A DNA stretch of 28,098 nucleotides, from the NCBI GenBank assembly GCA_039922855.1, contig JBDTDW010000142.1, forward strand, positions 1 through 28,098. Direction: 5' to 3'. The notes under the pieces were generated by a model that saw only the letters and a program-made list of their open reading frames with translations, searched no databases and had not been told where the DNA came from. The stretch comes from Candidatus Nanopelagicales bacterium (GTDB taxonomy: Bacteria > Actinomycetota > Actinomycetes > S36-B12 > CAIYMF01). Made by a program: the position numbers and the translations under genes. Each line of letters starts with the position of its first letter. Position 1 is the first letter of the stretch. This document shows positions 1 through 16,806 of this stretch, piece by piece.

Positions 1-501
1 CCCCACTGCCTTCAGGCGCGGCGCCACGGCGCTGAGCCACCACAGGTTCATCGCCATCGGATTGGTGTAGTTCAGCAGCCAGGCGTCAGGACAGACCTGC
101 TCCATGTCATGGGCAAGTCCAGTGAGCAGGGGGAAGGTGCGCAGCGCGCGGAAGATGCCACCGATCCCGAGCGTGTCCCCGATCGTCTGGCGAAGACCGA
201 ACCGCGCGGGGATATCGAAATCGGTGCGGGTGGCCGCCAGGCCACCGACCTGCACCATGTTGACAACGAACTCGGCACCGTCGAGCGCCTTTCGGCGGTC
301 TAGCTCGCACGTCACGGTCGGGTGCACGTGGAGCTGCTCGGACACCTGCCGGGCGATCCCTTCGGCGGTGCCCAGCCGTTCTTCGTCGATGTCGTGCAGG
401 CACACCCGCGAATCTGCGAGCTCCGGGTAGCTCAGGATGTCCACCAGCAGCTGTTGGGTGAACTCGACGCTGCCGGCGCCGACGAAGGTGATCGTGGTCA
501 T
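1..501 (-). CDS. melA: GH4 NAD+/Mn2+-dependent alpha-galactosidase/alpha-glucosidase (MelA-like); 3' end runs off the window
   Basis: Translated by hand (not in ORF track): MTTITFVGAGSVEFTQQLLVDILSYPEL...QVGG...DFDIPARFGLRQTIGDTLGIGGIFRALRT...CPDAWLLNYTNPM. This contains the GAGS Rossmann motif and the GH4 QTIGDTLG/NYTNPM signatures. AGGAG RBS lies upstream of the ATG at 501. Confidence 0.88.
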   Translation of the reverse strand, partial: MTTITFVGAGSVEFTQQLLVDILSYPELADSRVCLHDIDEERLGTAEGIARQVSEQLHVHPTVTCELDRRKALDGAEFVVNMVQVGGLAATRTDFDIPARFGLRQTIGDTLGIGGIFRALRTFPLLTGLAHDMEQVCPDAWLLNYTNPMAMNLWWLSAVAPRLKAVG

Positions 502-535
502 CGAGCAGGTCTCCTCGGGGCTGGTACTCCAGCAC

Positions 536-551
536 GTTCGACATATCGAAC
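536..551. promoter_or_regulatory. Palindromic operator GTTCGA-CATA-TCGAAC (candidate IclR site 1) between divergent melA and the PLP enzyme
   Basis: Perfect 6-bp-arm palindrome (7 bp with flanking C/G). The same motif recurs at 5869, 5995 and 11273. Confidence 0.8.
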
Positions 552-575
552 GACGTTCAGAGATACTATCGCATC

Positions 576-1892
576 GTGACGAGCCGGCGCTTTGGAAAGA
601 CCGATGTGGAACCGAGGTACGACGCGGAGCAGATAGCACGAATCCGTCGGCGTTCGGTCCCCGCGACGGAGAAGGGCTTCGGCGGCCCGACACACCGCTC
701 TCGTATCACTGTCGAGGCGATCGTGGCCGACCACCCCCACGTGCGGGGTGGCCTGCTGGGCACGCCTCGAGCTCTCCTGCGGGAAGCGGCATTGACACAG
801 AACATCACTGCGATGGCCGACTACTGCCAACGGCACGACGTCACGTTGTTTCCCCATGGGAAGACGACGATGGCCCCACAGCTGTGGGCTCGACAGCTGG
901 CGGCCGGTGCAGGCGGGATCACAGTCGCCACCCCATCCCAAGCCCGTCTGGCGAGGAAGTTCGGGGTTCGGCGCGTGCTCGTGGCGAATGAGATCGTGGA
1001 CGAGGGTGCGATCCGTTGGGTAGCTCAAGAGCTGAGCGCTGACAATGACTTCTCGTTCCTGTGCTACGTAGACAGCTTGGCGGGAGTGGAGCTTCTGGAG
1101 CACGCACTTGCCACGTGCGGATTCACGGGTCGGCTGCATGTGCTCGTGGAGCTCGGGCATGAGGATGGCCGGACCGGTGCTCGCGGTGAGGCCGCGGCGA
1201 TCGAGGTGGCCGGTGCGGTCGGTCGGTCCGGTCACCTCGAGCTGGCCGGCATCGCAGGCTACGAGGGATCGCTCGTCGCGCCATCCGTGGAGGCCACGGC
1301 CGACCTGGCCCGCGGCTACTGCGAGCGGATGGCACAGCTGACCCTGTCGCTGCTCTCAACCGGCCACTTCCCCCAGCGCCCGGTTGTGACCGCAGGTGGG
1401 TCGGCGTATTTCGACGTCGTGGTCGGCGCGCTCGCGGGCACTGCCCAGTGGGATCTCGTCCTGCGCAGCGGCTGCTACCTCACTCACGACCATGGAACGT
1501 ACGCCCGACTCTCACCATTCGAGCGCGCGCAGTCGGCCACCCCGGTGCTCGCACCCGCGCTCGAGGTGTGGGCGCCGGTGCTGTCACGGCCCGAACCCAC
1601 GGTTGCCGTTCTGGGCGTTGGTCGTCGGGACATCTCGTTCGACGCCGGAAACCCCGTGGCACTCGGGGCTACAACCGCGGACGGAACAGAAGTCGTGGTC
1701 GACACAGCGTCGGTGGACCGGCTGTTCGACCAGCACGCGGTAGCTGCTGTGCCGATCGGCTCGGGTCTCGAGGTCGGGGACGAGGTCCGACTCGGCATCT
1801 CCCACCCGTGCACCACGTTCGACAAGTGGCGGTGGATCCCTGTCGTCGATGACCAAGACCGGATCGTCGATGTCGTACGGACCTTCTTCTGA
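576..1892 (+). CDS. Fold-type III (alanine racemase barrel) PLP enzyme, D-serine/D-threonine/D-glucosaminate deaminase-like (cryptic DSD subfamily)
   Basis: PHGKTTMAPQLW (PLP lysine), GIAGYEG, TAGGSAYFD, LRSGCYLTHDHG and GISHPCTTFDKWR motifs. Start uncertain: GTG 576, or GTG ~606 behind GGAAAG. Confidence 0.8.
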   Translation: MTSRRFGKTDVEPRYDAEQIARIRRRSVPATEKGFGGPTHRSRITVEAIVADHPHVRGGLLGTPRALLREAALTQNITAMADYCQRHDVTLFPHGKTTMAPQLWARQLAAGAGGITVATPSQARLARKFGVRRVLVANEIVDEGAIRWVAQELSADNDFSFLCYVDSLAGVELLEHALATCGFTGRLHVLVELGHEDGRTGARGEAAAIEVAGAVGRSGHLELAGIAGYEGSLVAPSVEATADLARGYCERMAQLTLSLLSTGHFPQRPVVTAGGSAYFDVVVGALAGTAQWDLVLRSGCYLTHDHGTYARLSPFERAQSATPVLAPALEVWAPVLSRPEPTVAVLGVGRRDISFDAGNPVALGATTADGTEVVVDTASVDRLFDQHAVAAVPIGSGLEVGDEVRLGISHPCTTFDKWRWIPVVDDQDRIVDVVRTFF

Positions 1893-1916
1893 ACGACAGC
1901 GGCCGCCCGCGTGGTA

Positions 1917-2774
1917 CTAGACGGCTTGGCCGATGGTTTGGCGCTGGCTTCCCAAGCCATCGACCGACAGCTCCACGACGTCCCCGGCCCGCAGGTAGCG
2001 AGGCGGCGTCATTCCCATCCCGACCCCGGCCGGAGTACCGGTGTTGATGAGGTCCCCGGGTTCGAGCACCATGAACTGGCTGACGTAGCGGACGATCTCG
2101 AGCACTGGGAAGATCATGTTGGCGGTGGTGCCTTGCTGGCGGGGGTCGCCGTTGACGCTCAGTTCCAGGCTCAGGTCCTGCGGATCGGGTATGTCGTCCG
2201 CGGTGACCAGCCACGGGCCGAGCGGGTTGAACGTCTCGCAGGACTTGCCTTTCACCCACTGGCCGCCCCGCTCTAGCTGGAAGTGGCGCTCCGAGACGTC
2301 GTGAGAGACGCAGTATCCGGCGATCGACTCGCGGGCCGCGATGACCGAGGGGAGGTAGCGGGCCGTCTTCGCGATCACGACCCCTAACTCGACCTCCCAG
2401 TCCGTCTTGTGGCTGCCGATCGGCAGGAGAACGTCGTCGTACGGACCGATCACTGTGTTGGGGGCCTTGAAGAACACGACCGGCTCGTCCGGGACGGGCA
2501 TCGACGACTCGGCGGCGTGATCGCGGTAGTTGAGTCCGATGCACACGACCTTCCCAGGCCGGGCAACTGGTGCGCCCCACCGCTCGACGTCTTTGACCGG
2601 GGTGGAGCGCAGCGCGCTGTCACCGTCCAGCAGCGCCCGGAGTGCCTGCAGTCCACCGCCTGCGAAGAACTCAGCATCGAAGTCGCGTACCACGTCCGCG
2701 ACATTCAGGACCAGACCATCACGAAGGACACCGGGCAGCTCGTGGCCTATCGGGCCGGTGCGAACGAGTTTCAT
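1917..2774 (-). CDS. Fumarylacetoacetate hydrolase (FAH) family protein
   Basis: KVVCIGLNYRDH, FFKAPNT, DWEVELGVVI, HDVSER, WVKGKS, LGPWLVT and DLINTGTPAGVG motifs. True start is MKLVRTG at 2774 (AAGGA RBS), not the ORF-track start at 2942. Confidence 0.9.
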   Translation of the reverse strand: MKLVRTGPIGHELPGVLRDGLVLNVADVVRDFDAEFFAGGGLQALRALLDGDSALRSTPVKDVERWGAPVARPGKVVCIGLNYRDHAAESSMPVPDEPVVFFKAPNTVIGPYDDVLLPIGSHKTDWEVELGVVIAKTARYLPSVIAARESIAGYCVSHDVSERHFQLERGGQWVKGKSCETFNPLGPWLVTADDIPDPQDLSLELSVNGDPRQQGTTANMIFPVLEIVRYVSQFMVLEPGDLINTGTPAGVGMGMTPPRYLRAGDVVELSVDGLGSQRQTIGQAV

Positions 2775-2796
2775 CAGCGTCCTTTCCCTTGATCCC

Positions 2797-3678
2797 TCAG
2801 CCGGCGAACATGGTCGGTGGGCGGCCCGTGACGCCGGGGTGGTGCTGGAACACAGAGCCCGCGAGTGGTTGTTCTGTGCGGGCCCGGCCGTCGAGTCCTT
2901 CGGCCGCCGTCGTGATGAACAGCTCGGCGTAGTGCAGGCCACCGAACGCCATACTGCTCACCTGCGTGACCGGCAGAACCACCGACCTGTCGAGCTCACC
3001 GCTGGGCGAATAGCGCCTGATACAGCCCCCTCCCCACACCGCGACCCACAAGAACCCGTCAGCATCCACGGTCAGACCGTCGGGTACGCCCAGAGACGGT
3101 GGTATGGCTACCAGCGTCTGGCGGTCGTACGCCGTCCCGGATGCGAGGTCGAACCGCAGGGTGTCGACGGTGCCAGAGCCGGAGTCCACGAAGTACATGG
3201 TGCTCGCGTCCGCTGACCAGCCGAGGCCGTTGGAGATCGTCACTTCGGTGAGGCATCGACTCGGCACCTGGTCGGCCTCCAGGCAGTACAAGGACCCGGC
3301 CCCCGGGGTCTCGTCGTAGGCGAGCGTCCCAGCCCAGAAGCGACCGGCGGGATCACATCGTCCGTCGTTGAATCGTGTCCCCGGCGGCTGCTCGGGGGCC
3401 GAGATGACCGGTCCCATCGGTCGCCAGTCGTCGTCGTAGAACGCGAATCCCCTCTCCACGGCGGCGACCCAGCCACCTGAGGACCGCGGGACGACTGCGC
3501 CGACGGGCGTCTCGATCTCCCACATCTGACGCAGGCCGGTTGCCGGGTCGATGGCATGCACTCGGCCGGCGAGGATGTCGACCCAGAACAGCTGCTGGGA
3601 CCGATCGTCCCAGCACGGTCCTTCGCTGAGCTCGCCTGCCATCGGGACGAGGACGTCGACCTCTGAAGGCTCGGTCAA
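2797..3678 (-). CDS. SMP-30/gluconolactonase/LRE family sugar lactonase
   Basis: LSEGPCWD, RFNDGRCDPAGRFWAGT, ISNGLGWS and PDGLTVDADG metal-ligand motifs of the six-bladed propeller. Confidence 0.9.
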   Translation of the reverse strand: MTEPSEVDVLVPMAGELSEGPCWDDRSQQLFWVDILAGRVHAIDPATGLRQMWEIETPVGAVVPRSSGGWVAAVERGFAFYDDDWRPMGPVISAPEQPPGTRFNDGRCDPAGRFWAGTLAYDETPGAGSLYCLEADQVPSRCLTEVTISNGLGWSADASTMYFVDSGSGTVDTLRFDLASGTAYDRQTLVAIPPSLGVPDGLTVDADGFLWVAVWGGGCIRRYSPSGELDRSVVLPVTQVSSMAFGGLHYAELFITTAAEGLDGRARTEQPLAGSVFQHHPGVTGRPPTMFAG

Positions 3679-4643
3679 AACCGGATCACGGCTTTCACCG
3701 GCTCACTGGCGCCCCCTGCGAGCGACATGAACGCTTGCGCCGAGTCCTCCACCGAGACCGACGTGGTCCAGGACAGGTCGAGGTCACCGGCCGCTCCGAG
3801 CGCAGTGGCGAAGTCCGCTGGGGTGTAGGCGAAAGAGCCGATGACGAGCTTCTCCGACCGGACCAGGTCGCGGCCGTCGAAGCCGGCACCCCCTTCGGCC
3901 AGCCCGAGCCACACGGTGGTCCCGCCCGGCCGAAGGTGAGAGATGGCCATGTGTCGGGTCTGGGCGCTCCCCACCGCGTCGATGATCACGTCGTACTCAC
4001 CTGCCAGCTGCTCTGCGATCGCCGTCGCCCCGAGCCGATCGGCCAGCGCGAGCCGGGTTGTCGACCGGTCCACGACGGTGATCTCAGTCAGTCCCGTACG
4101 GCGCGCCCACAGGGTGCAGACCAGGCCTATGGTCCCCGCGCCGATCACGGCGGCGCGTATGTCCGTCTCACTGCCCACCTTGCGCCAGGCATGCACGGCG
4201 TTCGCGAGCGGCTCGACCAGCGAGGCGCTCTCCCACGCGAGCCCGTCCGGAATCTCGAGCAGGGAGCTGATGGGCACGACCGCCCTCTCGGCGAACCCTC
4301 CTGCACGCTGGACGCCCAGGAGCTCGCGGTGCCGGCAGATCTGCGGCTGGCCCCTTCGACACATGTCGCAATTGCCGCAGCTGAGCAACGGGTTCACCAC
4401 GACTCGACGTCCATCCGGTGAGATGCCGGCGAACTCGTGACCCATCACGAGCGGCGGGGTTCGAGAATCGAGGTTTCGGAACCCGTGCAGCTCGCTGCCG
4501 CAGATCCCGGCCGCCTTGACATCGATGACGACCGCGTCGCCGCCAGCCAGCGGTTGCGGCAGGTCCTGCAGCTCCACGGTCCCGGGAGCGGTGAAGACCA
4601 GTCCGCGCATCGTCCTGCTGGGGCTGACCTGTGCGCTGGTCAC
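3675..4643 (-). CDS. Zn-dependent medium-chain dehydrogenase (sorbitol/idonate/galactitol-P dehydrogenase-like)
   Basis: GICGSELH, GHEFAG, structural-Zn CGNCDMCRRGQPQIC and GAGTIG motifs. 4-nt overlaps with both neighbours. Confidence 0.88.
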   Translation of the reverse strand: MTSAQVSPSRTMRGLVFTAPGTVELQDLPQPLAGGDAVVIDVKAAGICGSELHGFRNLDSRTPPLVMGHEFAGISPDGRRVVVNPLLSCGNCDMCRRGQPQICRHRELLGVQRAGGFAERAVVPISSLLEIPDGLAWESASLVEPLANAVHAWRKVGSETDIRAAVIGAGTIGLVCTLWARRTGLTEITVVDRSTTRLALADRLGATAIAEQLAGEYDVIIDAVGSAQTRHMAISHLRPGGTTVWLGLAEGGAGFDGRDLVRSEKLVIGSFAYTPADFATALGAAGDLDLSWTTSVSVEDSAQAFMSLAGGASEPVKAVIRF

Positions 4644-5023
4644 GAGTCTCCTTCGGCTGCAACCACATCGATCTCGACAAGTATGTTCAAGAGCTGGGAG
4701 CCGACAGTGGTGCGCACCGGGTAGGGCTGGGAGAATACCCGTTCGTATGTCGAATTGAACCCGGCGAAGTCCGCCTCGAGCCGAGCCAGGTGCGCGGTGA
4801 CCTTCACGACGTCCGCCAGACCGAGTCCGACCTCGCTCAGGGCTCTTTCCACGTTGCGCAACGTGACCTCCGTCTGGGCGCTGATCCCCTCCGGGATCAA
4901 CCCGGTAGCTGGGTCCTGAGGGCCGAAACCTGCGGTGAAGACGAGGCCGTGCGCCACTGTCAGATGGCTGTACGCGCCTCCCGGAGGGGGCAGCTCACTG
5001 CTGGTCAGGAAGCGTGGGCTCAC
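4640..5023 (-). CDS. RidA/YjgF/UK114 family enamine/imine deaminase
   Basis: 127 aa with PPGGAYSH, GFGPQDP, VVKVTAHL, FNSTYERVF, PVRTTVG (catalytic Arg) and VEIDVVA. Confidence 0.88.
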   Translation of the reverse strand: MSPRFLTSSELPPPGGAYSHLTVAHGLVFTAGFGPQDPATGLIPEGISAQTEVTLRNVERALSEVGLGLADVVKVTAHLARLEADFAGFNSTYERVFSQPYPVRTTVGSQLLNILVEIDVVAAEGDS

Positions 5024-5070
5024 TGGTCACCTTTCTGCGCTTGTCTTTGCGGCTTGTCTCTGAGGTGGCA

Positions 5071-5841
5071 TCACATGAGTGCTAGCTGTCCGCCGTCGAC
5101 GACGAGCTCCGCACCGTGCACGAACGAGGCATCGTCCGAGGCGAGGAAGGCATAGGCCGCAGCCACCTCGAAGTCCTGACCTATACGACCCAGTGGGATG
5201 TTGTCCCGCGCGTACGCGGATGCGAAGGCGGCACCCCCGAGGTCCGCGGAGATCTCGGAGTTCAGGGGCGTGTCGATGTAACCCGGGCAGAGCGCGTTGA
5301 CCCGGATGCCGTGTCTTCCCAGCTCGACGGCCATCGTCTTGGTCAGCAGTAGAACACCACCCTTGGACGCGTTGTAGTGGGCGTAGTCGGCCTCGCCCGC
5401 GATCCCGTTCGTCGAACACATGTTGACGATCGCGCCGCCTTGTCCCTGGTCGACCAGAAGCCGGGAGACTGCCTGGGCGACCAGGAACATCCCGCGCAGG
5501 TTCACCGCGATCATCTGGTCCCAGTGGGCTGGCGTTATCTCCAGGAACGGCTCGCGCCAGGAGACTCCAGCGTTGTTGATGAGCACATCGATGCCCCCCA
5601 TGGCCTTGGCGGCGGCGGAGACCAGTCCGGCCACGTCTGCTTCGCGGGTGACGTCGAAGGCCCCGCCGAACACCTGGCCCGGGGCGGCGAGGTTCACCTC
5701 GACCACCGCGGTCACCTCGGCGGCGTCCAGGCCGCCGAGGAACACGGTGGCGCCCTCCTGCAGGAACCGTCGTGCGGCCGCTAGGCCGATGCCGCTGCTT
5801 CCCCCGCTGATGAGCACCCGCTTGCCTGCGAGGCCTCTCAC
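5071..5841 (-). CDS. Classical short-chain dehydrogenase/reductase (SDR)
   Basis: SGGSSGIG, NNAG, YNASK, RVNALCPG and VDGG motifs. GTG start with GGGGTGAGG RBS region. Confidence 0.9.
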   Translation of the reverse strand: MRGLAGKRVLISGGSSGIGLAAARRFLQEGATVFLGGLDAAEVTAVVEVNLAAPGQVFGGAFDVTREADVAGLVSAAAKAMGGIDVLINNAGVSWREPFLEITPAHWDQMIAVNLRGMFLVAQAVSRLLVDQGQGGAIVNMCSTNGIAGEADYAHYNASKGGVLLLTKTMAVELGRHGIRVNALCPGYIDTPLNSEISADLGGAAFASAYARDNIPLGRIGQDFEVAAAYAFLASDDASFVHGAELVVDGGQLALM

Positions 5842-5868
5842 GCCGACCTCACCCCGCCCTCACATATT

Positions 5869-5884
5869 TGTCGATATTTCGAAC
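5869..5884. promoter_or_regulatory. Candidate IclR operator site 2 (minus strand GTTCGA-AATA-TCGACA), overlapping the -10/+1 of the SDR operon promoter
   Basis: 14/16 identity to site 11273. It directly abuts a minus-strand TTGGCA(5912-5907)-18-TACCGT(5888-5883) promoter. A second candidate promoter is TTGACA(5940-5935)-18-TACCTT(5916-5911). Confidence 0.72.
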
Positions 5885-5961
5885 GGTATTCGGTGGATCG
5901 ACAGATTGCCAAGGTAGTAAGCATCTCCGTGCCGTGTCAATCGCCGCTCGTGAGTGCCTGT

Positions 5962-6010
5962 TTGACCCGAAATCGGACTGCTCCCTAGACTCACGTTCGA
6001 GATGTCGGGC
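5962..6010 (+). promoter_or_regulatory. iclR promoter TTGACC-18-TAGACT with a degenerate operator (GTTCGA-GATG-TCGGGC, 5995-6010) over the start codon
   Basis: -35 at 5962-5967, -10 at 5986-5991, ATG at 6002. The left half-site is perfect and the right half is 4/6, suggesting a short or no leader and autoregulation. Confidence 0.55.
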
Positions 6011-6838
6011 GACGATCGAAACCACGACCGAGCCGGTCATGCGGCGTCGGCCCCGAGACGAGTGGTTCCGGCCGCCAGCCGGGCCCTGGACATCCTCGAG
6101 CTGTTCTTGCAGGCCCCCCTGCTCTCTGCTGCGGACATCGTCAACCGGCTGGGCCTGCCCAGGACGACCGTCCACGAGCTGGTGACCACGCTCGTGGACC
6201 GCCGCTACCTCGTCCGGGTTCCCGGCCAGCCGGTGCGGTACCGGGTCGGAGTGCGACTGTTCCAGCTCGGCAGTGTCTATGCCGAGGAGCTCGAGCTGAG
6301 TAGGGAGGCCCAGGACGTCGCCACCGACGTGTCCGCCGCGTGCGACGAGACCGTGCACGTGGCCGTGCTCGAGGGAGCCGACGTCATGTACATCGCACGT
6401 ATCGAGAGCACGCAGCCGGTACGGATGTTCTCGGCCGTGGGCCGGCGCATGCCCGCCCGATGCACGGGCGTGGGCAAGGTGCTCCTGTCCGGCGTTTCCG
6501 GCCCGGTGCTCGACGCCCTCTACCCCAAGGGTTCGCCGCTGACCGCGATGACGCCCAACTCCATCGTCTCCCACGCTCGCCTGCGCGCCCAGCTCAAGGA
6601 GATCGCCCACCGCGGCCTGGCCTACGACGACGCCGAGTCGAATGCCGACGTCCAGTGTGTCGCGGCTCCGATATATGACCGGTCCAGGGCCATGGTCGCT
6701 GCCATGAGCATCTCCGTCCCGACCATGAGATGGGACGACGTGCGGCGCGACCAACTCTCCGAACTTGTGCTCGCGGGCGCGCGTGAGCTCTCGGAGCGGC
6801 TCGGTTGCCCCCCCGACGTGTTCGACGTAGCCCATTAG
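6002..6838 (+). CDS. IclR family transcriptional regulator
   Basis: N-terminal HTH (RALDILELF...LGLPRTTVHELVTTL), ETVHVAVLEG, VGRRMPARCTGVGKVLL and CVAAPIYD. Confidence 0.93.
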   Translation: MSGDDRNHDRAGHAASAPRRVVPAASRALDILELFLQAPLLSAADIVNRLGLPRTTVHELVTTLVDRRYLVRVPGQPVRYRVGVRLFQLGSVYAEELELSREAQDVATDVSAACDETVHVAVLEGADVMYIARIESTQPVRMFSAVGRRMPARCTGVGKVLLSGVSGPVLDALYPKGSPLTAMTPNSIVSHARLRAQLKEIAHRGLAYDDAESNADVQCVAAPIYDRSRAMVAAMSISVPTMRWDDVRRDQLSELVLAGARELSERLGCPPDVFDVAH

Positions 6839-6904
6839 CGCGACACCCACGGGTGTCAGCGAACGCGAGGATCCCGGTCTGATGCGCTTCACGGAGCCAC
6901 GTCC

Positions 6905-8035
6905 TCAGCTGGTGTGAGCAACACGGGAGCACTCGACCCCGGTCAGCGCCACGCCGGACTCCGCGTGGAAGAGGAACACTGCCGTCGGGTCGATCGCCAG
7001 GTGGATCCGGGTCCCTGGCGTCGGGCGTTCTTTCGCCGGGACCTGCACCACGACCAGCTCATCGGTCTGCACCTGCCGTTCCCCAGCACGCGGGTCACCT
7101 CCACCGACCTCCATCCGGACATGCACCAGGTTGTGGCTGCCCAGTGGCTCCACGAAGTCCACTATCGCGATCGCTGCCGTCTCGTCGGCGCCCACGATCC
7201 GGAAGGACTCCGGGCGGACACCGACCGTCACCTCGTCGAGTCCCGGCCCAACTCGTGAGACGGACAGGCCGCCCCACATCACCTGGCCGTCGACGACCGG
7301 TACCCGGGCAAGGTTCATCGCGGGGCTACCCATGAACCCGGCGACGAAGGTGTTGGCGGGGGACTCGTAGATCTCCTGCGGGGATCCCAGCTGTTGCGAC
7401 GCACCTTCGGACATGACACAGATCCGGTCGCCGAGCGTCATGGCTTCGACCTGGTCGTGCGTCACGTAGATCGTGGTGATGCCTAGCCGGCGATGAAGCT
7501 GCTTGAGCTGGCCGCGGACCTCTGAGCGCAGCTTCGCATCGAGGTTGGACAGGGGTTCGTCGAGGAGAAATACCTGCGGCTCACGCACGAGTGCCCGCCC
7601 CATCGCGACCCGCTGTCGCTGTCCTCCCGACAGCTGAGCGGGCTTGCGCTCGAGCAGCGACTCCAGGCCTAGCATCGCGCTGGTCCGTCGGACCCGCTCA
7701 TCCACCTCGTGCTTCGGGGTCTTGCGCTGGCGAAGCCCGTAAGCCAGGTTTCGATAGACACTCATGTGTGGGTAGAGCGCATAGTTCTGGAACACCATCG
7801 CGATGTCCCGCTCCCCGGGATCCATCGAGTTGACCACGCGACCCCCGATGAGGATGTCTCCGGATGTCGGCTTGTCCAAGCCGGCCAGCAGACGAAGCGC
7901 CGTGCTCTTCCCGCACCCGGAAGGTCCCACCATGATGATGAACTCGCCGTCGGCGACATCGAGGCTCAGTTCGCGGAGGGCGAAGACGTCGCTGCCGTAA
8001 CGCCTTGTCACGTTCCGCAGTTCAACTTGTGCCAC
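6905..8035 (-). CDS. Carbohydrate ABC transporter ATP-binding protein (MsmK/SugC/UgpC-like)
   Basis: Walker A GPSGCGKS, FQNYALYPHM, LSGGQRQRVAMGR, LLDEPLSNLDAKLR, YVTHDQVEAMTL and a C-terminal TOBE region. Confidence 0.95.
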   Translation of the reverse strand: MAQVELRNVTRRYGSDVFALRELSLDVADGEFIIMVGPSGCGKSTALRLLAGLDKPTSGDILIGGRVVNSMDPGERDIAMVFQNYALYPHMSVYRNLAYGLRQRKTPKHEVDERVRRTSAMLGLESLLERKPAQLSGGQRQRVAMGRALVREPQVFLLDEPLSNLDAKLRSEVRGQLKQLHRRLGITTIYVTHDQVEAMTLGDRICVMSEGASQQLGSPQEIYESPANTFVAGFMGSPAMNLARVPVVDGQVMWGGLSVSRVGPGLDEVTVGVRPESFRIVGADETAAIAIVDFVEPLGSHNLVHVRMEVGGGDPRAGERQVQTDELVVVQVPAKERPTPGTRIHLAIDPTAVFLFHAESGVALTGVECSRVAHTS

Positions 8036-8071
8036 AGGGCACCCCTTGACTCAATCGTGAAACCGGCATCG

Positions 8072-8989
8072 CTATCCCTTCAGCCCGGTAGCGGCCACAG
8101 AGCGCACGAAATAGCGCTGCGCGGCGAAGAAGATGACCAGCATCGGCAGCAGGCTCATGACGTTCCCAGCCATGAGCAAGGTCCATTGCGTCGCGTGAGC
8201 ACTCTGGAAGAACGTCAGACCGAGTGGCAGCGTCATGTTCGACTGAGAGTCGATCACGATCAGCGGCCAAAGGAAGTTGTTCCACGAATCCAGGAATGTC
8301 AGTGCCGCAAGTGTTGACAAGGCAGGGAGTGACAGTGGAAGAACAATCTTGAACAGCACCCCGATGCGTGAGGTGCCGTCAATCCGTGCCGCTTCCTCGA
8401 GCTCCACCGGAATGGTACGAAAGAACTGCCTGAGGAAGAAGATGCCGAACGCGGTCACCAGATTGGGCACGATCAGCGCCCCGAGGTGGTCTATCCCGAC
8501 TCCGGAAGCGACATTGATCCCGAGCCATTTCACGATGAGGAACTCCGGGATCATCGTGACTTGAAACGGCACCATCAGCGTGACCATGAGCGAGGCGAAC
8601 AGCAGCGACTTCCCCGGGAAACGCAGTCTGGCGAAGGCGTAGCCGGCCAAGCTGCAGAGCACCAAGTTCGACAGCACGACGATCACAGCGACGATGGCGC
8701 TGTTGAGGAAGAACTGGCCGAAAGGCGCAGCATTGAGCGCATCCGGGTAGTTCGTCCACCTGATGGCGTGGGGGACCAGGGTGGGGGGGAACTGAGCCGC
8801 CTCGTCTGGTGTCTCGAGCGAGGTGATCAGCATCCACAGAAGAGGGACGAGCAACACGAAGGTGATGGGGATGAGGACCAGGTGCCAAGGGCTAGGCACT
8901 CGAGATCCACGGGCGTCCGGCACCAGGTTGCTGGTGCTTGTCCCGGACACCACGTCGTCGGGGACGGTCACGACCGTGTGTGCTGTCAT
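8072..8989 (-). CDS. Carbohydrate ABC transporter permease (MalG-like)
   Basis: Start MTAHTVV at 8989 overlaps the upstream stop (ATGA). LAGYAFARLRFPG, EAA loop ELEEAARIDG and WNNFLWPLI. The ORF-track extension to 9721 is spurious. Confidence 0.92.
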   Translation of the reverse strand: MTAHTVVTVPDDVVSGTSTSNLVPDARGSRVPSPWHLVLIPITFVLLVPLLWMLITSLETPDEAAQFPPTLVPHAIRWTNYPDALNAAPFGQFFLNSAIVAVIVVLSNLVLCSLAGYAFARLRFPGKSLLFASLMVTLMVPFQVTMIPEFLIVKWLGINVASGVGIDHLGALIVPNLVTAFGIFFLRQFFRTIPVELEEAARIDGTSRIGVLFKIVLPLSLPALSTLAALTFLDSWNNFLWPLIVIDSQSNMTLPLGLTFFQSAHATQWTLLMAGNVMSLLPMLVIFFAAQRYFVRSVAATGLKG

Positions 8990-9918
8990 GAGCTGTAGTG
9001 GACGAACTTGTTGCCCAGCCAGAACTGGATGGCGGTGACCAGGGCGATGACCAGGAACAAGGCGTACGCCATGGCGGCGGCATAACCGGCGTTGAACTGT
9101 CGAAACGCCTGGTCCCACAAGTAGTAGACGACGACGGATGTCGAGTAGAGCGGGCCCCCACGGGTGCTCAGGTAGACCTCGTCGAACAACTGCAGGGCAT
9201 TGATGGTCAGCCAGACGACGAGGAACAAGGTCGCCGGACTGAGCAGCGGGACCACGATCGTCCGTAGCACCGTCAACCGGCTCGCACCGTCGATCGCGGC
9301 GGCGTCGAGGACATCTTGCGGGATGCCCTGTAGCGCCGCCAGGTAGATGACCACCGCGAACCCGGTCCATCCCCACACGGTCATCAGCACGATCACGAAG
9401 AGCGCTTGGCTTGGGTCGGACATGAACGGCTGCTGCGGAATGTGGAGCAGGCTGAGCCCGTAGTTGATCACCCCGTAGACGGGGTCGAAGAGCCACAGGA
9501 AGACGATCGCGGTCGAGATCGATGAAACTGCCATGGTGACGTACGCCGCCGTGCGGTAGATCGATATCCCACGGATCTTCCGGTTGAGGGCGACCGCGAT
9601 CAGGAAGCCGACGACGATGGTGCCGGGAACGAACAGCGACGTGTACACGATGGTGTGCTGGATCGCTCCGGCGAACAGCGGGTCGTTCGCCATCTGCCGA
9701 TAGTTCGCCGTGCCCACCCAAGGTGTGTCAGGCGTGAGCAGATCGGCCTTCTGGAAGGACAGCAGCAACGACCACGCGATCGGCAGCAGGCCGAAGATGG
9801 CGATAAATATCGTCGCCGGAGATGCGAAGAGCCACCCGGTGGCGCTCTCAGAGCGAGCAACTCGGCGTACGAGGCGCCGGCCGGGCCTGCTGGAGGTAGG
9901 GGCAGCAGCAACCGCCAT
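8986..9918 (-). CDS. Carbohydrate ABC transporter permease (MalF-like)
   Basis: WVGTANY, LAALQGIPQDVLDAAAIDGAS (EAA loop), LQLFDEVY and AGYAAAMA. Confidence 0.93.
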   Translation of the reverse strand: MAVAAAPTSSRPGRRLVRRVARSESATGWLFASPATIFIAIFGLLPIAWSLLLSFQKADLLTPDTPWVGTANYRQMANDPLFAGAIQHTIVYTSLFVPGTIVVGFLIAVALNRKIRGISIYRTAAYVTMAVSSISTAIVFLWLFDPVYGVINYGLSLLHIPQQPFMSDPSQALFVIVLMTVWGWTGFAVVIYLAALQGIPQDVLDAAAIDGASRLTVLRTIVVPLLSPATLFLVVWLTINALQLFDEVYLSTRGGPLYSTSVVVYYLWDQAFRQFNAGYAAAMAYALFLVIALVTAIQFWLGNKFVHYSS

Positions 9919-9919
9919 G

Positions 9920-11227
9920 TCAGCTCCCGGTAGCGAGAACCTGGTTGACCTGCGTGGCGGCCGAGGTCAGGGCTGACTGCGGATCACTCTTGTTGAGCAT
10001 CACAGAGACGATCGCATTGCCGAGGATCTCGGAGATCTTGGGATAGGTCGTCACCTGAGGACGAGCTTGTTGGACGTTGGCGAGGTTGTTGATGAATAAC
10101 CCGACCCCGGGCAGCGCCTTGTCCATGCTGGCAACGAACGGTGCGTCCGTGGCCAACGACTGGCGCGTCGGCAGGTCTCCGGTTGCCAGCGAGAAAGCCT
10201 TGACCTGTTCCTTCGCCGTCAGCCAGACGACGAAGTCGGTGGCAGCCTTCGCCCGCGCGTCTCCGTTCTTGAACACCACCCAGTTGTCGGGCCCCGCGAT
10301 CGTCTGGTGACCGCCGCTGGAACCCTCATACGCGGGCATGATCTGGACGCCGTAGTCGACCTTGGGGAACGACGAAAGGTCCCACGGCCCCGTGATGATC
10401 ATCCCGACCTTACCCGCGTTGAACAGGTTCTCGGACTTGTCGTTGGAGGTGTCGAGGAAGACGGACTTGTCCGTCACCGCCATGTCGCGCAGCGTCGTCA
10501 GCGCCTGGACGCCTTGCGGGGAGTTGAATGCCGCCTGCTTGTTGTCCGGAGTGAGGAGCTGGCCGCCGGCCTCCCACAGCATGGCCTCCCAGTGCCAGAC
10601 CGTGTCTTCGCTGCCGTCGGCGGGGATAGTCCAGCCGAATTGCTTCTGCGCCGGATTGGTCATGGCTCGTGCGGCGTTCTCGAAGTCCGTCCAGGTCCAC
10701 GTAGGTGTCGGGGTGGGCACGCCCACCGCAGCGAACATCTTCTTGTTGTAGACGATCGCGAGGTTGTCCACGAGCGCCGGCATCCCGATCACCTTGCCGT
10801 TGACTGTTGCGACGTCGCTCTCGCCCGTGGGGAAGTCGCCCCAGTCCACTCCCGGTGCCTTCACCGTCTCCGTCAGGTCGACCACCAGGGGGATCTTGGC
10901 GACGCTCGGAGCCCAGGAGCCGTACAGGTACGCGACATCAGGTGGGGTGCCACCGCTCACGGCGGTCAACACCTTCTGCAGCGCATAGTCGTTGTTCACA
11001 TAGAGCGTAGTGACGTTCACATTGGGGTGCTGTGCGTTGTACTCCTTGACCAACGCGTTGAACTCCGTGCCCTCGGTGTCGGTCCAGCCGTGCCAGACCA
11101 CCACCGACACCTTTCCGCCGCTGGTTCCTGAACCACTCCCACCGCCGTCGCTGCCACTGCCGCAGCCGGCAATTGCCGTCACCAGCAAACCGGCCGCCAG
11201 TACTGCCAGACCTACCCGAGCCCTCAT
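9920..11227 (-). CDS. Carbohydrate ABC transporter substrate-binding lipoprotein (family 1)
   Basis: Start MRARVGLAVLAAGLLVTAIAGC at 11227 (lipobox IAGC, GAGAGG RBS). SG-rich linker, VWHGW, PDVAY, YNKKMF and GKVGMIITGPW. Confidence 0.93.
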   Translation of the reverse strand: MRARVGLAVLAAGLLVTAIAGCGSGSDGGGSGSGTSGGKVSVVVWHGWTDTEGTEFNALVKEYNAQHPNVNVTTLYVNNDYALQKVLTAVSGGTPPDVAYLYGSWAPSVAKIPLVVDLTETVKAPGVDWGDFPTGESDVATVNGKVIGMPALVDNLAIVYNKKMFAAVGVPTPTPTWTWTDFENAARAMTNPAQKQFGWTIPADGSEDTVWHWEAMLWEAGGQLLTPDNKQAAFNSPQGVQALTTLRDMAVTDKSVFLDTSNDKSENLFNAGKVGMIITGPWDLSSFPKVDYGVQIMPAYEGSSGGHQTIAGPDNWVVFKNGDARAKAATDFVVWLTAKEQVKAFSLATGDLPTRQSLATDAPFVASMDKALPGVGLFINNLANVQQARPQVTTYPKISEILGNAIVSVMLNKSDPQSALTSAATQVNQVLATGS

Positions 11228-11272
11228 GACTGGACCTCTCGTCGGTCGCCAACCCCGTGGAGCGTGTATCTT

Positions 11273-11288
11273 GTTCGAAATATCGAAC
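11273..11288. promoter_or_regulatory. Palindromic operator GTTCGA-AATA-TCGAAC (candidate IclR site 4), downstream of the ABC operon promoter
   Basis: Perfect 6-bp-arm palindrome identical in arms to 536-551. It lies between the promoter and the SBP start. Confidence 0.8.
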
Positions 11289-11393: not shown

Positions 11394-11927
11394 TCACGTG
11401 ATCGGAGCCACGTATTCCATGAGCAGGTTGTCGTGCCAGCATTTGCCCTCGGTGTCGTGTTCATACCGGTGCATCACACCAATTGGCTCGAAGCCGCAAG
11501 CCCGGTAGCACGCGATCGCAGCGATATTGTTCAGGGCGGGGTCGCTGGTGATCCGGTGGTGGCCTCGTACCTCCACGAGCCACCGCAGGATCACTGCGAC
11601 GACCTCGCGGCCGAGCCCCCGGCGGTGCACCGAACCTGCCAGGAACACCTCGATGCTGGCCACCGCATACTCGGGGTCATCGCCCTCCCGCGCCTGAATC
11701 ATCCCGATGACCGCGCCGTCGGGCCCGATGTCGTGAGCACCTGACAGCTCGATCGCGAACAGCGTTTTCGACTGTGAGGCAGCGTCGGCATTCAGGAAAT
11801 CGGGACCGTGCCACCAACGGGCCACCTCCCGGGACCGACGGATCGCGGTGAGAGTCGCGCTGTCTTCGGCGGTGACCGGGCGAAGGACGGTGCGCATGGT
11901 CCGCAGGGTCAGATCGGCCGTGGACAC
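11394..11927 (-). CDS. GNAT N-acetyltransferase (RimL/AAC(6')-like)
   Basis: VSTADLTLRTMRTVLRPVTAED...VARWW...HRRGLGREVV...HHRITSDPALNNIAAIACYRACGFEPIG...WHDNLLME. The GTG at 11927 sits 6 nt below a CTGACA-17-CACCAT promoter (leaderless-type). Confidence 0.8.
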   Translation of the reverse strand: MSTADLTLRTMRTVLRPVTAEDSATLTAIRRSREVARWWHGPDFLNADAASQSKTLFAIELSGAHDIGPDGAVIGMIQAREGDDPEYAVASIEVFLAGSVHRRGLGREVVAVILRWLVEVRGHHRITSDPALNNIAAIACYRACGFEPIGVMHRYEHDTEGKCWHDNLLMEYVAPIT

Positions 11928-15134: not shown

Positions 15135-16258
15135 GCGCTCTTGACGACCTTCGCAACCTCGCCGGCCGGCTTCCCGGGGAGCCGGGGCGCTTCGCCGGCG
15201 CGATCGGCGCCGCGGGTGCTGCGCTGACCGTCGGCGCCGCACTGGGAGTGGCGGCCGAGCGCGCGTTGGTCCGCCGCGGGCCGCGCCACGACGACGACGG
15301 GGACCGCGAGCTGGGCACTCTGCGCGGACGGGTGGTCCCGGTCGTGGCCAGCGACGGGGTGCCCCTGCACGTCGAGGTGGACGAGCCGCGCGGGTCCCCC
15401 GCCCGAACTGGCGCCGACGCACTCACGGTGGTGTTCTGCCACGGGTTCGCGTTGACGCAGGACACCTGGCACTACCAGCGCCGCGACCTGCGGTCCTTGG
15501 GCCGGCTCGTGTTCTGGGACCAGCGCAGTCACGGCCGGTCCGGTCGCTCGGCGGCGGAGTCCGAAACGATCGACCAGCTCGGCCAGGACCTTGCTTCCGT
15601 CATCGACGCGACCTGCCCGCCTGATGGCCCCGTGGTGCTGGTCGGGCACTCGATGGGCGGGATGACCGTGATGGCGTACGCCGAGCTGCGTCCGGCGGAC
15701 TTCGGGTCCCGGGTGCGCGGCGTCGCGCTGATCGCCACGTCGGCCGGTGGGCTGACCACCGATGTGCTGCTCGGCCTGCCGCCCGCGCTCTCGCGTGGCC
15801 TGTGGCGGCTCACCCCTGGCGTGGTCAGCGGCCTCGTGCGGCAGAAGGACTTCGTGGAGCGGACCCGGCAGATGGGCAGCGACCTCGGACTCGTGCTGAC
15901 CCGGCACTACTCGTTCGGGTCGCAGGTGTCCCCGGCGCTGGCCGAGTTCGTGCACGACATGATCTGGGCTACGCCCATCGAGGTCGTGGGGGAATTCCTG
16001 CCTACGCTGGACACCCACGACAAGCGCACCGCGATCCAGGCGCTGCAGCGCGTCGATACCGTCGTCATGGTCGGCGAGAAGGACCTCATGACACCCCCGA
16101 GCCACAGCGAGGCGATCGTGGCGCAGCTGCCCGGAGTTGAGCTGGTCCGGATCCCCGGCAGCGGCCACATGGTCATGCTTGAGCGCTACCCCGACGTGAA
16201 CGACCAGGTGCGAGCCCTCGTCTCCCGGGTCCGCAAGGATCTCGCGACGAACGGATGA
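15131..16258 (+). CDS. Alpha/beta-fold hydrolase (conserved between alr and tsaE in actinobacteria)
   Basis: HGFAL, WDQRSHGRS, nucleophile GHSMGG, GEKDLMTP and GSGHMV. N-terminal hydrophobic stretch. Confidence 0.88.
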   Translation: MSALDDLRNLAGRLPGEPGRFAGAIGAAGAALTVGAALGVAAERALVRRGPRHDDDGDRELGTLRGRVVPVVASDGVPLHVEVDEPRGSPARTGADALTVVFCHGFALTQDTWHYQRRDLRSLGRLVFWDQRSHGRSGRSAAESETIDQLGQDLASVIDATCPPDGPVVLVGHSMGGMTVMAYAELRPADFGSRVRGVALIATSAGGLTTDVLLGLPPALSRGLWRLTPGVVSGLVRQKDFVERTRQMGSDLGLVLTRHYSFGSQVSPALAEFVHDMIWATPIEVVGEFLPTLDTHDKRTAIQALQRVDTVVMVGEKDLMTPPSHSEAIVAQLPGVELVRIPGSGHMVMLERYPDVNDQVRALVSRVRKDLATNG

Positions 16259-16806
16259 ACGCGCGGGTGCTGGAACGCGTCGTCACCGACCGGGACGCCA
16301 TGCACGCGCTGGGCAAAGAGCTCGCGGTTCTGCTGAGGGCCGGGGACCTGGTGCTGCTGTCCGGGGAGCTCGGCGCCGGCAAGACGACCCTCGCGCAGGG
16401 CATCGGGGAAGGCCTGCACGTCCGAGGCCCCGTCACCTCCCCGACGTTCGTCCTGGCCCGGGTGCACCCCAACCTGGGTACTGGACCTGCCCTCGTGCAC
16501 GTCGACGCGTACCGGTTGGCCGGCTTGCACGAGGTCGACGACCTCGACCTCGACGCCTCGCTCGAGGGCGCAGTCACCCTCGTGGAGTGGGGTGAGGGCA
16601 AGGCCGACGGGCTCGCCGAGGACCGGCTCGTGATCCGGATCGCACGCACCCTGGGCGCCCCGGTGCCGGGCGACCAACGCGAGGACGAGGACCAGGACGA
16701 GCCTCGCACCGTCACGGTCACCGCAATCGGCCCGCGTTGGTCGGTGCCACAGGCTGACCCTGCCGAGGGCACCCACACACCGGCCGCGCCCGGCGCGGCC
16801 TCGTAG
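16255..16806 (+). CDS. tsaE: tRNA threonylcarbamoyladenosine biosynthesis ATPase TsaE
   Basis: GELGAGKTT, VTSPTFVL, HVDAYRL and VEWGE. Confidence 0.95.
   Translation: MNARVLERVVTDRDAMHALGKELAVLLRAGDLVLLSGELGAGKTTLAQGIGEGLHVRGPVTSPTFVLARVHPNLGTGPALVHVDAYRLAGLHEVDDLDLDASLEGAVTLVEWGEGKADGLAEDRLVIRIARTLGAPVPGDQREDEDQDEPRTVTVTAIGPRWSVPQADPAEGTHTPAAPGAAS

Follow-up and report, generated by a model that had tools for sequence, protein, structure and literature searches.

A gene cluster at the left end of a contig of Candidatus Nanopelagicales bacterium, an actinobacterium from soil (GenBank assembly GCA_039922855.1, contig JBDTDW010000142.1) probably encodes the IclR-controlled catabolism of an alpha-linked 2-amino-2-deoxy-hexose glycoside, which would be imported, hydrolysed, oxidised to an aminoaldonate, deaminated and finally cleaved by a diketo-acid hydrolase. 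Galactosamine-containing oligosaccharides appear to be the most likely substrate, with glucosamine as the alternative. The window, i.e. the whole stretch of DNA that was analysed, is the entire 28-kb contig (C142; 28,098 nucleotides) of a fragmented, high-G+C metagenome-assembled genome (MAG), which is 81% complete and measures 2.26 Mb. An original prediction had read the cluster as an oxidation-deamination pathway for amino sugars; its inference of a 2-amino sugar substrate is supported, whereas the central chemistry is not new, having already been published in 2022.

The gene map was obtained from an open reading frame scan, a codon-bias gene caller and Pfam/NCBIfam searches. Positions 1-11288, referred to here as the island, contain a fragment of a GH4 glycosidase, a fold-type III pyridoxal phosphate (PLP) enzyme, an FAH-family hydrolase, an SMP-30 lactonase, a Zn-dependent medium-chain dehydrogenase (MDR), a RidA protein, a short-chain dehydrogenase (SDR), an IclR regulator and a four-gene CUT1 ATP-binding cassette (ABC) importer:

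1-501, minus strand: GH4 glycosidase (MelA-like), cytoplasmic; PF02056, 2e-49; PRK15076 alpha-galactosidase-like; start at ~501 read from the sequence
576-1892, plus strand: fold-type III PLP enzyme, start at GTG 576 or GTG 603; PF14031 (D-ser_dehydrat), 2.6e-18, and PF01168 (Ala_racemase_N)
1917-2774, minus strand: FAH-family hydrolase; PF01557, 5e-71
2797-3678, minus strand: SMP-30/gluconolactonase-type (SGL) lactonase; PF08450, 3e-78; regucalcin, 6e-53
3675-4643, minus strand: Zn-dependent MDR; ADH_N, ADH_zinc_N, Glu_dehyd_C
4640-5023, minus strand: RidA-family imine/enamine deaminase, 127 aa; PF01042, 4e-22
5071-5841, minus strand: SDR dehydrogenase; adh_short_C2, 5e-64
6002-6838, plus strand: IclR-family regulator; HTH_IclR, 2e-13, and IclR_C, 9.5e-43
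6905-8035, minus strand: ABC ATPase (MalK/UgpC/MsiK type); ABC_tran and TOBE_2; NF008653, 454.7 against a cut-off of 432
8072-8989, minus strand: CUT1 permease 2; BPD_transp_1; the L001 orthologue has 305 aa
8986-9918, minus strand: CUT1 permease 1; BPD_transp_1, 1e-17
9920-11227, minus strand: lipoprotein solute-binding protein (SBP; CUT1, oligosaccharide type); SBP_bac_1 and SBP_bac_8, ~4e-39

All the genes named in the original prediction are present by Pfam and NCBIfam, with the GH4 enzyme limited on the contig to 167 residues; the IclR regulator at 6002-6838 had not been named in it. Two operons run leftward. The first has the order SDR-RidA-MDR-lactonase-FAH, with the SDR gene first and 4-bp overlaps at the RidA/MDR and MDR/lactonase junctions, the latter of which suggests translational coupling. 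The second comprises the SBP, the two permeases and the MalK-type ATPase.

In the proposed pathway, the lipoprotein SBP and the CUT1 transporter would import the glycoside, from which the cytoplasmic, NAD-dependent GH4 enzyme would free the amino sugar. One of the two dehydrogenases would oxidise C1 to an aminoaldonolactone, and the SMP-30 lactonase would open it to a 2-amino-2-deoxy-D-aldonate, formally a D-alpha-amino-beta-hydroxy acid. The PLP enzyme, being OngC-like, could then catalyse alpha,beta-elimination, with RidA hydrolysing the enamine/imine, to give 2-keto-3-deoxy-hexonate and ammonia. The second dehydrogenase would oxidise C4, a step which erases the sole difference between the gluco and galacto series, and the Lra6-like FAH enzyme would presumably cleave the resulting 2,4-diketo acid into pyruvate and D-glycerate. 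The pathway would require neither kinase nor aldolase, and the glycerate may be taken up by a glycerate kinase encoded elsewhere in the genome, on contig C175 (PF02595, 364 bits).

The presence of a fold-III PLP enzyme and a RidA protein in the slot which an oxidative sugar cluster would fill with a sugar-acid dehydratase argues for a 2-amino sugar as the substrate. Within the island, Pfam and NCBIfam found no enolase-, IlvD- or UxaA-type dehydratase. The assignment is supported by the homology of the PLP enzyme to a gene of a Vibrio ong cluster, as OngC is a D-glucosaminate deaminase and OngD is essential (PMC9537276), and by about 40 actinomycete cassettes which combine RidA, IclR, KdgK, PLP enzyme, D-aminoacylase and GntP/Eda. 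It is further supported by orthologous clusters in which the oxidative genes are replaced with an amino-sugar-6-phosphate deaminase/tagatose-type set, and by FAH homologues elsewhere, which pair with IlvD or enolase dehydratases in the place of the PLP enzyme.

The architecture of the PLP enzyme is that of fold-type III, with an alanine-racemase-like barrel and a C-terminal D-ser_dehydrat domain (PF01168 and PF14031, and the model). Its closest PDB match, 3gwq (5e-72), is an uncharacterised 'putative D-serine deaminase', and the same entry ranks first when its AlphaFold model (predicted local distance difference test 87.9) is searched with Foldseek, followed by D-threonine aldolases, beta-hydroxyaspartate aldolase, D-threo-3-hydroxyaspartate dehydratase and chicken D-serine dehydratase. 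The motifs PHGKT and SHPC are invariant among 16 homologues and both are found in the window protein; the H-x-C pair of the latter probably corresponds to the H351/C353 metal site of D-threo-3-hydroxyaspartate dehydratase, for which mutants appear in PDB titles. The aldolases presumably have His and Asp where the PLP enzyme has His-x-Cys, a comparison based on PDB titles; a search of the C-terminal fragment against the PDB did not align the aldolases. Acids derived from glucosamine and galactosamine have the D (2R) configuration needed by an enzyme of the D-amino-acid type, which mannosaminate does not. The enzyme is annotated here as a predicted 2-amino-2-deoxy-aldonate ammonia-lyase, OngC-like.

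Its putative partner is a 127-aa RidA protein in the same regulon, and RidA occurs in 47 of 84 homologue neighbourhoods. The protein matches PF01042 (4e-22), but reaches 71.5 against a cut-off of 106 for TIGR00004; it retains an Arg in YPVRTTVG, which we take to sit where E. coli RidA (FPARSCVEV) has the catalytic Arg105.

The chemistry assumed here was described by Jiang et al. in 2022 in the ong pathway of Pseudoalteromonas prydzensis, which handles C1-oxidised chitin products (PMC9537276). There, OngB, a member of the D-aminoacylase family, deacetylates the oxidised N-acetylglucosamine derivative GlcNAc1A, the fold-III PLP enzyme OngC converts 2-amino-2-deoxy-D-gluconate (GlcN1A) into 2-keto-3-deoxygluconate and ammonia, and KdgK follows; OngD, a 127-aa RidA, is essential in vivo, and OngR is the regulator (PMC9537276). 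As a stand-in for P. prydzensis OngC in identity figures, the PLP gene of the ong cluster of Vibrio sp. THAF191d was used, with which the window enzyme shares 39% identity across 384 aa (E 9e-84). That cluster was found by tblastn of a plasmid/chromid collection and has the order GH20-Eda-KdgK-transporter-RidA-OngB|PLP, in which the PLP gene diverges from the gene of an amidohydrolase scoring 570 bits against PpOngB (9kb1). A 514-aa protein after RidA, without a match to the queries used, is possibly the transporter. Since the neighbours include an OngB orthologue, RidA, KdgK, Eda and GH20, the Vibrio locus is a genuine ong cluster, which places the window enzyme in the OngC-containing family. 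A gammaproteobacterial sample of 150 genomes yielded only two PLP matches at E<=1e-40.

The neighbourhoods of PLP homologues were compared in 80 loci from species-representative genomes, with codon-model gene calls, clustered products and names from Pfam. None of the conclusions depends on the unpublished genomes G318, G120, G336 and G088. About 40 of the 80 actinobacterial loci share one cassette, with RidA, IclR and KdgK leftward, followed by PLP, Amidohydro_3 and GntP and/or 2-keto-3-deoxy-6-phosphogluconate (KDPG) aldolase rightward:

PLP gene at ~10001-11250 of each: L014, L019, L021, L023, L027, L030-L032, L034-L037, L040, L043, L046-L050, L052, L054, L056, L058, L059, L061, L063-L066, L069, L073, L074, L076, L079, L082, L083, L085

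The hosts include Streptomyces, Kitasatospora, Lentzea, Amycolatopsis, Saccharothrix and Saccharopolyspora; a seven-bladed lactonase is encoded in seven of these cassettes, and six contain an SBP, permeases and GH20. The cassette is an actinobacterial counterpart of the ong cluster, which in 2022 was reported only in Gammaproteobacteria and one Betaproteobacterium (PMC9537276). The breakdown of oxidised chitin (GlcNAc1A) may therefore be common among soil Actinomycetota. In a maximum-likelihood tree of 83 PLP homologues, the window enzyme falls in a separate and well-supported clade of nine (the window, L001 and L004-L010), and the Amidohydro_3-linked enzymes form another group of 41. Ten mycobacterial homologues (~45-49% identity; L024, L026, L028, L038, L039, L041, L055, L062, L072 and L080) make up one further clade; their setting is the same throughout, among housekeeping genes with lysS/lsr2/clpC on one side and coaX/panD/panC on the other and without sugar genes in the vicinity, and it is uninformative on function.

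Within the clade of nine, seven loci have GH4 and/or an orthologous ABC importer (SBP 61-64% identity, permeases 63-71%), and two versions of the cluster can be distinguished. The oxidative version, with MDR, SMP-30 lactonase, RidA, IclR and FAH, is found in the window, L001-3 and L010, and partly in L015, which lies outside the clade and has no FAH orthologue. The phosphorylative version (L004, L006-8) carries a SIS protein nearest GlmD/GlmS-C/AgaS, a hexose kinase of the 1-phosphofructokinase/tagatose-6-phosphate-kinase type, a class II ketose-bisphosphate aldolase nearest GatY, an AgaR-like DeoR repressor and a ribokinase-like kinase; these loci share the orthologous ABC importer, PLP enzyme and SDR, and GH4 is seen at the left end of L004 (1-12095). 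Galactosamine is favoured over glucosamine mainly because the ketohexose-phosphate kinase and aldolase of these sister clusters would be needed by a tagatose-6-phosphate route and not by the fructose-6-phosphate route of glucosamine. L005 has only GH4, ABC, DeoR, PLP and SDR genes within its 21-kb locus, and L010 joins both versions, adding a GntR/UTRA regulator, a SIS protein and a kinase, besides a weak NagB-like protein and an aldose epimerase.

The co-occurrence of the PLP and RidA genes with the lactonase and dehydrogenases, whose lack in other genomes would have spoken against the original prediction, recurs in L001-3, L010, L015 and L119. As a side observation, L010, a 58% relative, also encodes a PhyH-type 2OG/Fe(II) dioxygenase and an Amidohydro_2 protein of the lactonase/decarboxylase family (7814-8548 and 15486-16589), and a second GH4 paralogue with 40% identity, which together with the extra genes hints at a more complex glycoside. 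The coexistence of the Aga-like and PLP/SDR modules in L004 and L006-8 might be explained by a disaccharide of which one half is oxidised. A 423-aa gene without Pfam match upstream of PLP in the sister clusters resembles ParA/MinD in the Atlas and was dropped as a pathway candidate.

The exit from the pathway is suggested by the FAH enzyme, a predicted Lra6-like 2,4-diketo-3-deoxy-aldonate hydrolase. It matches 8gsr (L-2,4-diketo-3-deoxyrhamnonate hydrolase) over its full length (3.4e-75, residues 2-282 of 285), including the Lra6-type N-terminal extension. Its top NCBIfam model is NF053535, the Lra6 equivalog, for which it scores 321.5 bits against a cut-off of 500, and it is probably an Lra6 relative with a different diketo-acid substrate. 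For its neighbourhoods, 400 Actinomycetota genomes were searched and 20 loci fetched. Homologues with ~60% identity adjoin IlvD/EDD or enolase-type dehydratases and SDR genes, as in L121, with the order IlvD/EDD dehydratase, SDR, FAH and MDR, or in L117 and L122, where an enolase-type dehydratase accompanies SDR, aldo-keto reductase and FAH. In an independent cluster of genome G382 (L119:9121-18234), the leftward order is FAH (60%), M81/MlrC-like peptidase, PLP (42%), SDR, SMP-30 lactonase, OngB-like amidohydrolase, ceramidase-like protein and SIS_2. The FAH/dehydrogenase module is thus paired with either a classical dehydratase or a PLP deaminase, as would be expected if the PLP enzyme takes over the role of the dehydratase for a 2-amino substrate. 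The G382 cluster itself resembles an oxidative pathway for an N-acylated amino sugar, or for the lactone of one, that likewise ends in a diketo-acid hydrolase.

Both dehydrogenases lie in the FAH operon as candidate suppliers of the 2,4-diketo acid, and the signals on their roles conflict between PDB and NCBIfam matches, the similarity of the SDR to those next to FAH genes, and the distribution of the genes among sister genomes. The SDR passes the NCBIfam glucose 1-dehydrogenase subfamily model (229.6 against a cut-off of 215); its orthologue (70-85% identity) is present in all nine loci of the PLP clade and also in L015 and L022, and in six loci (L004-L007, L009 and L010) it lies beside the PLP gene in convergent orientation. 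For the MDR, the closest PDB match is 8wwd (2e-51), followed by threonine 3-dehydrogenases, and wherever its orthologue (63-88% identity) was found, the lactonase occurs as well (L001-3, L010 and L015); the MDR may act on the keto-deoxy acid at C4 or on the sugar at C1. We have a slight preference for placing the SDR at C1 and the MDR at C4, given that the SDR is the invariant partner of the PLP enzyme, including in L005, and that genomes with PLP and SDR occur without FAH. Against this stand the constant pairing of MDR with lactonase and the adjacency of SDR to FAH in nine of the 20 FAH-anchored loci; moreover, in the characterised Lra/Fuc routes the C4 dehydrogenase is an SDR. The window SDR is 35-42% identical to the FAH-adjacent SDRs, which is the background level for SDRs.

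The GH4 gene is cut by the left end of the contig, where the N-terminal 167 aa remain. This part holds the NAD-binding domain with a GxGS motif (PF02056); the 94%-identical L001 orthologue begins MTTITFVGAGS. The C-terminal catalytic domain falls beyond the contig end, and no other contig of the assembly yielded it; the 94%-identical L001/L002 orthologue has PF11975. In relatives, the complete GH4 gene (436 aa) is followed by a 183-aa gene without assigned function and then by glmS. With 577.6 bits, the full-length L002 orthologue (436 aa) exceeds the cut-off of 486 set for the PRK15076 alpha-galactosidase model; a specificity for amino sugars is only presumed. The 183-aa protein (L001:6607-7158, minus strand) follows GH4 on the same strand, has no Pfam or NCBIfam match and is probably co-transcribed with it; a 43%-identical paralogue is found on contig C15 of the window's genome. 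The N-terminus of the SBP (...LLVTAIAGC) carries a lipobox, its closest PDB match is 7bvt (2e-48), and its orthologues in the sister clusters are those 61-64% identical.

A dedicated regulon is indicated by a palindrome, GTTCGA-N4-TCGAAC, with sites in all three promoter regions of the island, two of them sharing the divergent SDR/IclR region:

536-551: operator O1, GTTCGACATATCGAAC; exact palindrome in the 74-bp promoter region between the divergent GH4 and PLP genes, conserved in L001 and L010
5869-5884: operator O2, TGTCGATATTTCGAAC; 2 mismatches, 28 bp upstream of the SDR start, positional equivalent in L001
5995-6010: operator O3, GTTCGAGATGTCGGGC; 2 mismatches, overlaps the first ATG of the IclR frame, positional equivalent in L001
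11273-11288: operator O4, GTTCGAAATATCGAAC; exact palindrome 46 bp upstream of the SBP start, exact equivalent in L001

Matches with at most two mismatches number 5, against 1.0 expected, and none of 100 shuffles reached 5. The whole 2.26-Mb assembly holds only two exact copies, both in the island (536-551 and 11273-11288). The sites recur at the same intergenic places in the 88%-identical relative and are degenerate in the 58% relative. The operator was seen only in clusters with an orthologous IclR, and it is absent from the intergenic regions of the four sister clusters inspected that do not have one (L004, L005, L006 and L015). Shuffles, assembly scan and relatives bear out the palindromic operator which the genes had been predicted to share. 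At the sequence level, this is the layout of a local IclR-type regulon, with an HTH_IclR and IclR_C regulator and its palindrome at the promoters of the adjacent catabolic operons. The regulator, whose nearest NCBIfam models are BhcR and KdgR (both under cut-off), would bind at the three promoter regions and is probably a repressor, rather than an activator, that is released by a pathway intermediate; the position of O3 over the IclR ATG suggests autoregulation. The glycerate kinase gene (G000:C175:3904-5034, minus strand) adjoins an IclR paralogue (~5116-5898), 33% identical to the island regulator; no operator-like site with at most one mismatch was seen on contig C175.

Several points weigh against the pathway proposed here. 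The GH4 orthologue passes the alpha-galactosidase model of NCBI, we know of no GH4 enzyme that acts on 2-amino sugars, and among solved structures the SBP is closest to an uncharacterised sugar-binding protein. The endo-alpha-1,4-polygalactosaminidase family GH114 (PF03537) was not found in the MAG, which at 81% completeness is not evidence of absence. The FAH and RidA proteins both score under their NCBIfam cut-offs. Genomes with the phosphorylative version have PLP and SDR without an orthologue of the window FAH or MDR, so that the lower pathway is not shared by all clusters and the part played by the SDR is ambiguous. The window PLP enzyme belongs to a paralogous clade and is not an OngC orthologue in the tree; the function of this nine-member clade is predicted from sequence, and OngC itself deaminates D-serine and D-threonine as well (PMC9537276).

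The last property leads to a reading in which the island serves uptake of a neutral alpha-galactoside of the melibiose/raffinose type and oxidative galactose catabolism, with PLP enzyme and RidA as a passenger pair for D-serine/D-threonine detoxification. It would agree with the GH4 score, with the alpha-galactosides commonly taken by CUT1 importers and with the D-serine and D-threonine activity of OngC-type enzymes (PMC9537276), but the island has no galactonate dehydratase and the assembly yielded no gene of the DgoK or DgoA type. Furthermore, the PLP gene shares its 74-bp operator region with GH4, its pairing with the SDR is kept throughout the clade, and the amino-sugar genes of the sister clusters would be left unexplained; we regard this reading as improbable. 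Little probability is likewise given to a 6-deoxy amino sugar, such as D-fucosamine or D-quinovosamine from O-antigens or capsules, which would yield pyruvate and lactate in parallel to the diketo-hydrolase routes of L-rhamnose and L-fucose. The closest characterised relative of the FAH enzyme (8gsr) does use a 6-deoxy diketo acid and NF053535 is its top NCBIfam match, yet at 321 bits the enzyme stays far below the 500 required for the Lra6 equivalog, the GH4 orthologue resembles MelA, and the sugar kinase, SIS amino-sugar-6-phosphate deaminase and ketohexose-bisphosphate aldolase of the sister clusters need a C6 hydroxyl. Least credible of all is a pathway for a beta-hydroxy-D-amino acid, free or glycosylated, that does not derive from a sugar (D-threonine or D-3-hydroxyaspartate, BhcC-like), with dehydrogenases and FAH acting on the resulting keto acids. 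The nearest NCBIfam models are indeed BhcC for the PLP enzyme (77 against 690 bits) and BhcR for the regulator (162 against 350), but these scores are far under cut-off, the former by an order of magnitude, and no role would remain for the lactonase, GH4 or an oligosaccharide-type importer; the conserved H-x-C of SHPC is as in D-threo-3-hydroxyaspartate dehydratase, as opposed to the His and Asp presumed for the aldolases.

A variant closer to the ong system, which we hold to be rather unlikely, is that the imported glycoside is already oxidised and ends in an aminoaldonate or its lactone, produced by an extracellular oxidase or LPMO-type attack (LPMO, lytic polysaccharide monooxygenase). GH4 would then release an amino sugar and an aminoaldonate, lactonase, PLP enzyme and RidA would take the acid half, MDR (with the lactonase) would merely channel the free amino sugar to these enzymes, and the C4 dehydrogenase acting with FAH would be the SDR. 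Such a substrate would explain the sister clusters that combine the Aga-like set with PLP and SDR and have no C1 dehydrogenase or lactonase. It would also fit the SDR neighbours of FAH in nine of 20 loci together with the SDR nature of the C4 enzyme in the Lra/Fuc routes, the joint occurrence of MDR and lactonase, and the G382 cluster, where a single SDR stands with lactonase, OngB-like deacetylase, PLP enzyme and FAH. The published ong pathway acts in this way on GlcNAc-GlcNAc1A (PMC9537276). On the other hand, L005, with its GH4, ABC, DeoR, PLP and SDR genes in 21 kb, reads more simply as sugar to SDR to PLP, the sister genomes with PLP and SDR have no FAH orthologue for the diketo product, no oxidase or LPMO is linked to the island, and the identity of the window SDR to the FAH-adjacent SDRs is merely 35-42%.

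With the entry of an unoxidised amino-sugar glycoside as the preferred reading, the island can be set against known systems. It shares with ong a fold-III PLP deaminase and a 127-aa RidA for the conversion of an aminoaldonate to a 2-keto-3-deoxy-aldonate and ammonia, as well as a dedicated repressor-type regulator. Unlike ong, the window has no OngB-type deacetylase, KdgK, KDPG aldolase, GH20 or SSS/GntP transporter. The gene set is not a complete ong cluster, in which an OngB-type N-deacetylase, KdgK and usually KDPG aldolase lie beside the deaminase (the assembly being 81% complete). By tblastn, that assembly yielded no OngB-type, Eda (KDPG aldolase), GntP, GH20 or second PLP homologue, and the sole match to the KdgK query was a weak PfkB (32% identity, contig C78). 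Entry into ong is by LPMO products and into the window pathway presumably by an alpha-glycoside through GH4, dehydrogenase and SMP-30 lactonase; the window further differs in its predicted exit through a C4 dehydrogenase and FAH, its separate PLP clade and an IclR-type regulator with its own palindrome.

The Lra1-Lra6-type routes for L-rhamnose, L-fucose and pentoses have the same logic of 1-dehydrogenase, lactonase, 2-keto-3-deoxy acid, 4-dehydrogenase and FAH, ending in pyruvate and a hydroxy acid, whereas the window pathway would replace the dehydratase by PLP-dependent ammonia elimination with RidA and start from a 2-amino sugar of an imported glycoside. The Aga pathway for N-acetylgalactosamine (GalNAc) and galactosamine (GalN), with AgaR, AgaS, tagatose-6-phosphate kinase and AgaY/KbaY, has counterparts in the sister clusters, which points to the same sugar class, but the window has none of these genes and no phosphorylation step. 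DgaE resembles the window enzyme in the PLP-dependent elimination of ammonia from an aminoaldonate to a keto-deoxy acid and differs in acting on the 6-phosphate and in uptake by a phosphotransferase system; we take it not to be a fold-III enzyme, an octameric assembly being noted in a reference title. MelA with CUT1 alpha-galactoside importers likewise places a cytoplasmic NAD-dependent GH4 beside an SBP, two permeases and a MalK-type ATPase, while the partners in the window are amino-sugar/aminoaldonate enzymes and not Leloir genes. The deamination step (ong) and the exit logic (Lra5/Lra6) are thus already known. What looks new is the entry from an imported alpha-glycoside via dehydrogenase and lactonase, without deacetylase, kinase or aldolase, joined to an Lra6-like FAH exit and a dedicated IclR palindrome; literature searches on glucosaminate/galactosaminate, non-phosphorylative galactosamine, diketo-3-deoxy amino sugars and GH4 galactosaminidase did not find this exact gene combination.

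The genes to the right of the island are housekeeping genes (GNAT, acpS, nnr, alr, tsaE/B, rimI, tsaD, groES/EL and whiB). The whole set is syntenic in three loci with 88% PLP identity (L001-3; two JGI metagenome contigs and one NCBI assembly), and synteny with the flanking genes in relatives defines the cluster as an island between glmS and acpS. Its G+C is 0.60-0.69 (0.60-0.63 in the transporter genes), against 0.71-0.76 in the genes at 12-20 kb (acpS-alr-tsa), which is compatible with horizontal acquisition into the glmS/acpS interval. A RimJ-like GNAT acetyltransferase (11394-11927, minus strand), also present in L001, is encoded immediately before the SBP promoter/operator and in the orientation of the SBP gene; it could be a housekeeping enzyme, or an amino-sugar N-acetyltransferase with read-through into the transporter operon. 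The DNA was found in soil, rhizosphere and outdoor metagenomes, with at least 0.4 of the sampled words in six studies, five of them so labelled; among the sequencing runs containing it, no RNA run was listed.

A more ambitious reading, put forward only tentatively, is that this is the first hexosamine pathway to proceed entirely without phosphorylation, supplied by a GH4 enzyme of new specificity (exo-alpha-galactosaminidase or alpha-glucosaminidase), by which soil actinobacteria scavenge cationic alpha-1,4-GalN/GalNAc polymers, such as fungal galactosaminogalactan and bacterial Pel, after extracellular endo-cleavage. If the proposed pathway holds true, it would take OngC/OngD chemistry beyond oxidised chitin and marine Gammaproteobacteria, to free amino sugars from alpha-glycosides and to soil Actinomycetota, and the diketo-acid hydrolase would be a third exit for amino-sugar carbon, beside the phosphorylative Nag/Aga and the KdgK/Eda routes. 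It also predicts a new substrate class for GH4. As a small, self-contained regulon of an uncultured MAG host, the island would be a convenient test system via synthetic genes. The SBP, GH4 and the effector of IclR are candidates for studying the use by soil bacteria of cationic exopolysaccharides containing GalN or glucosamine, the downstream catabolism of which is poorly known.

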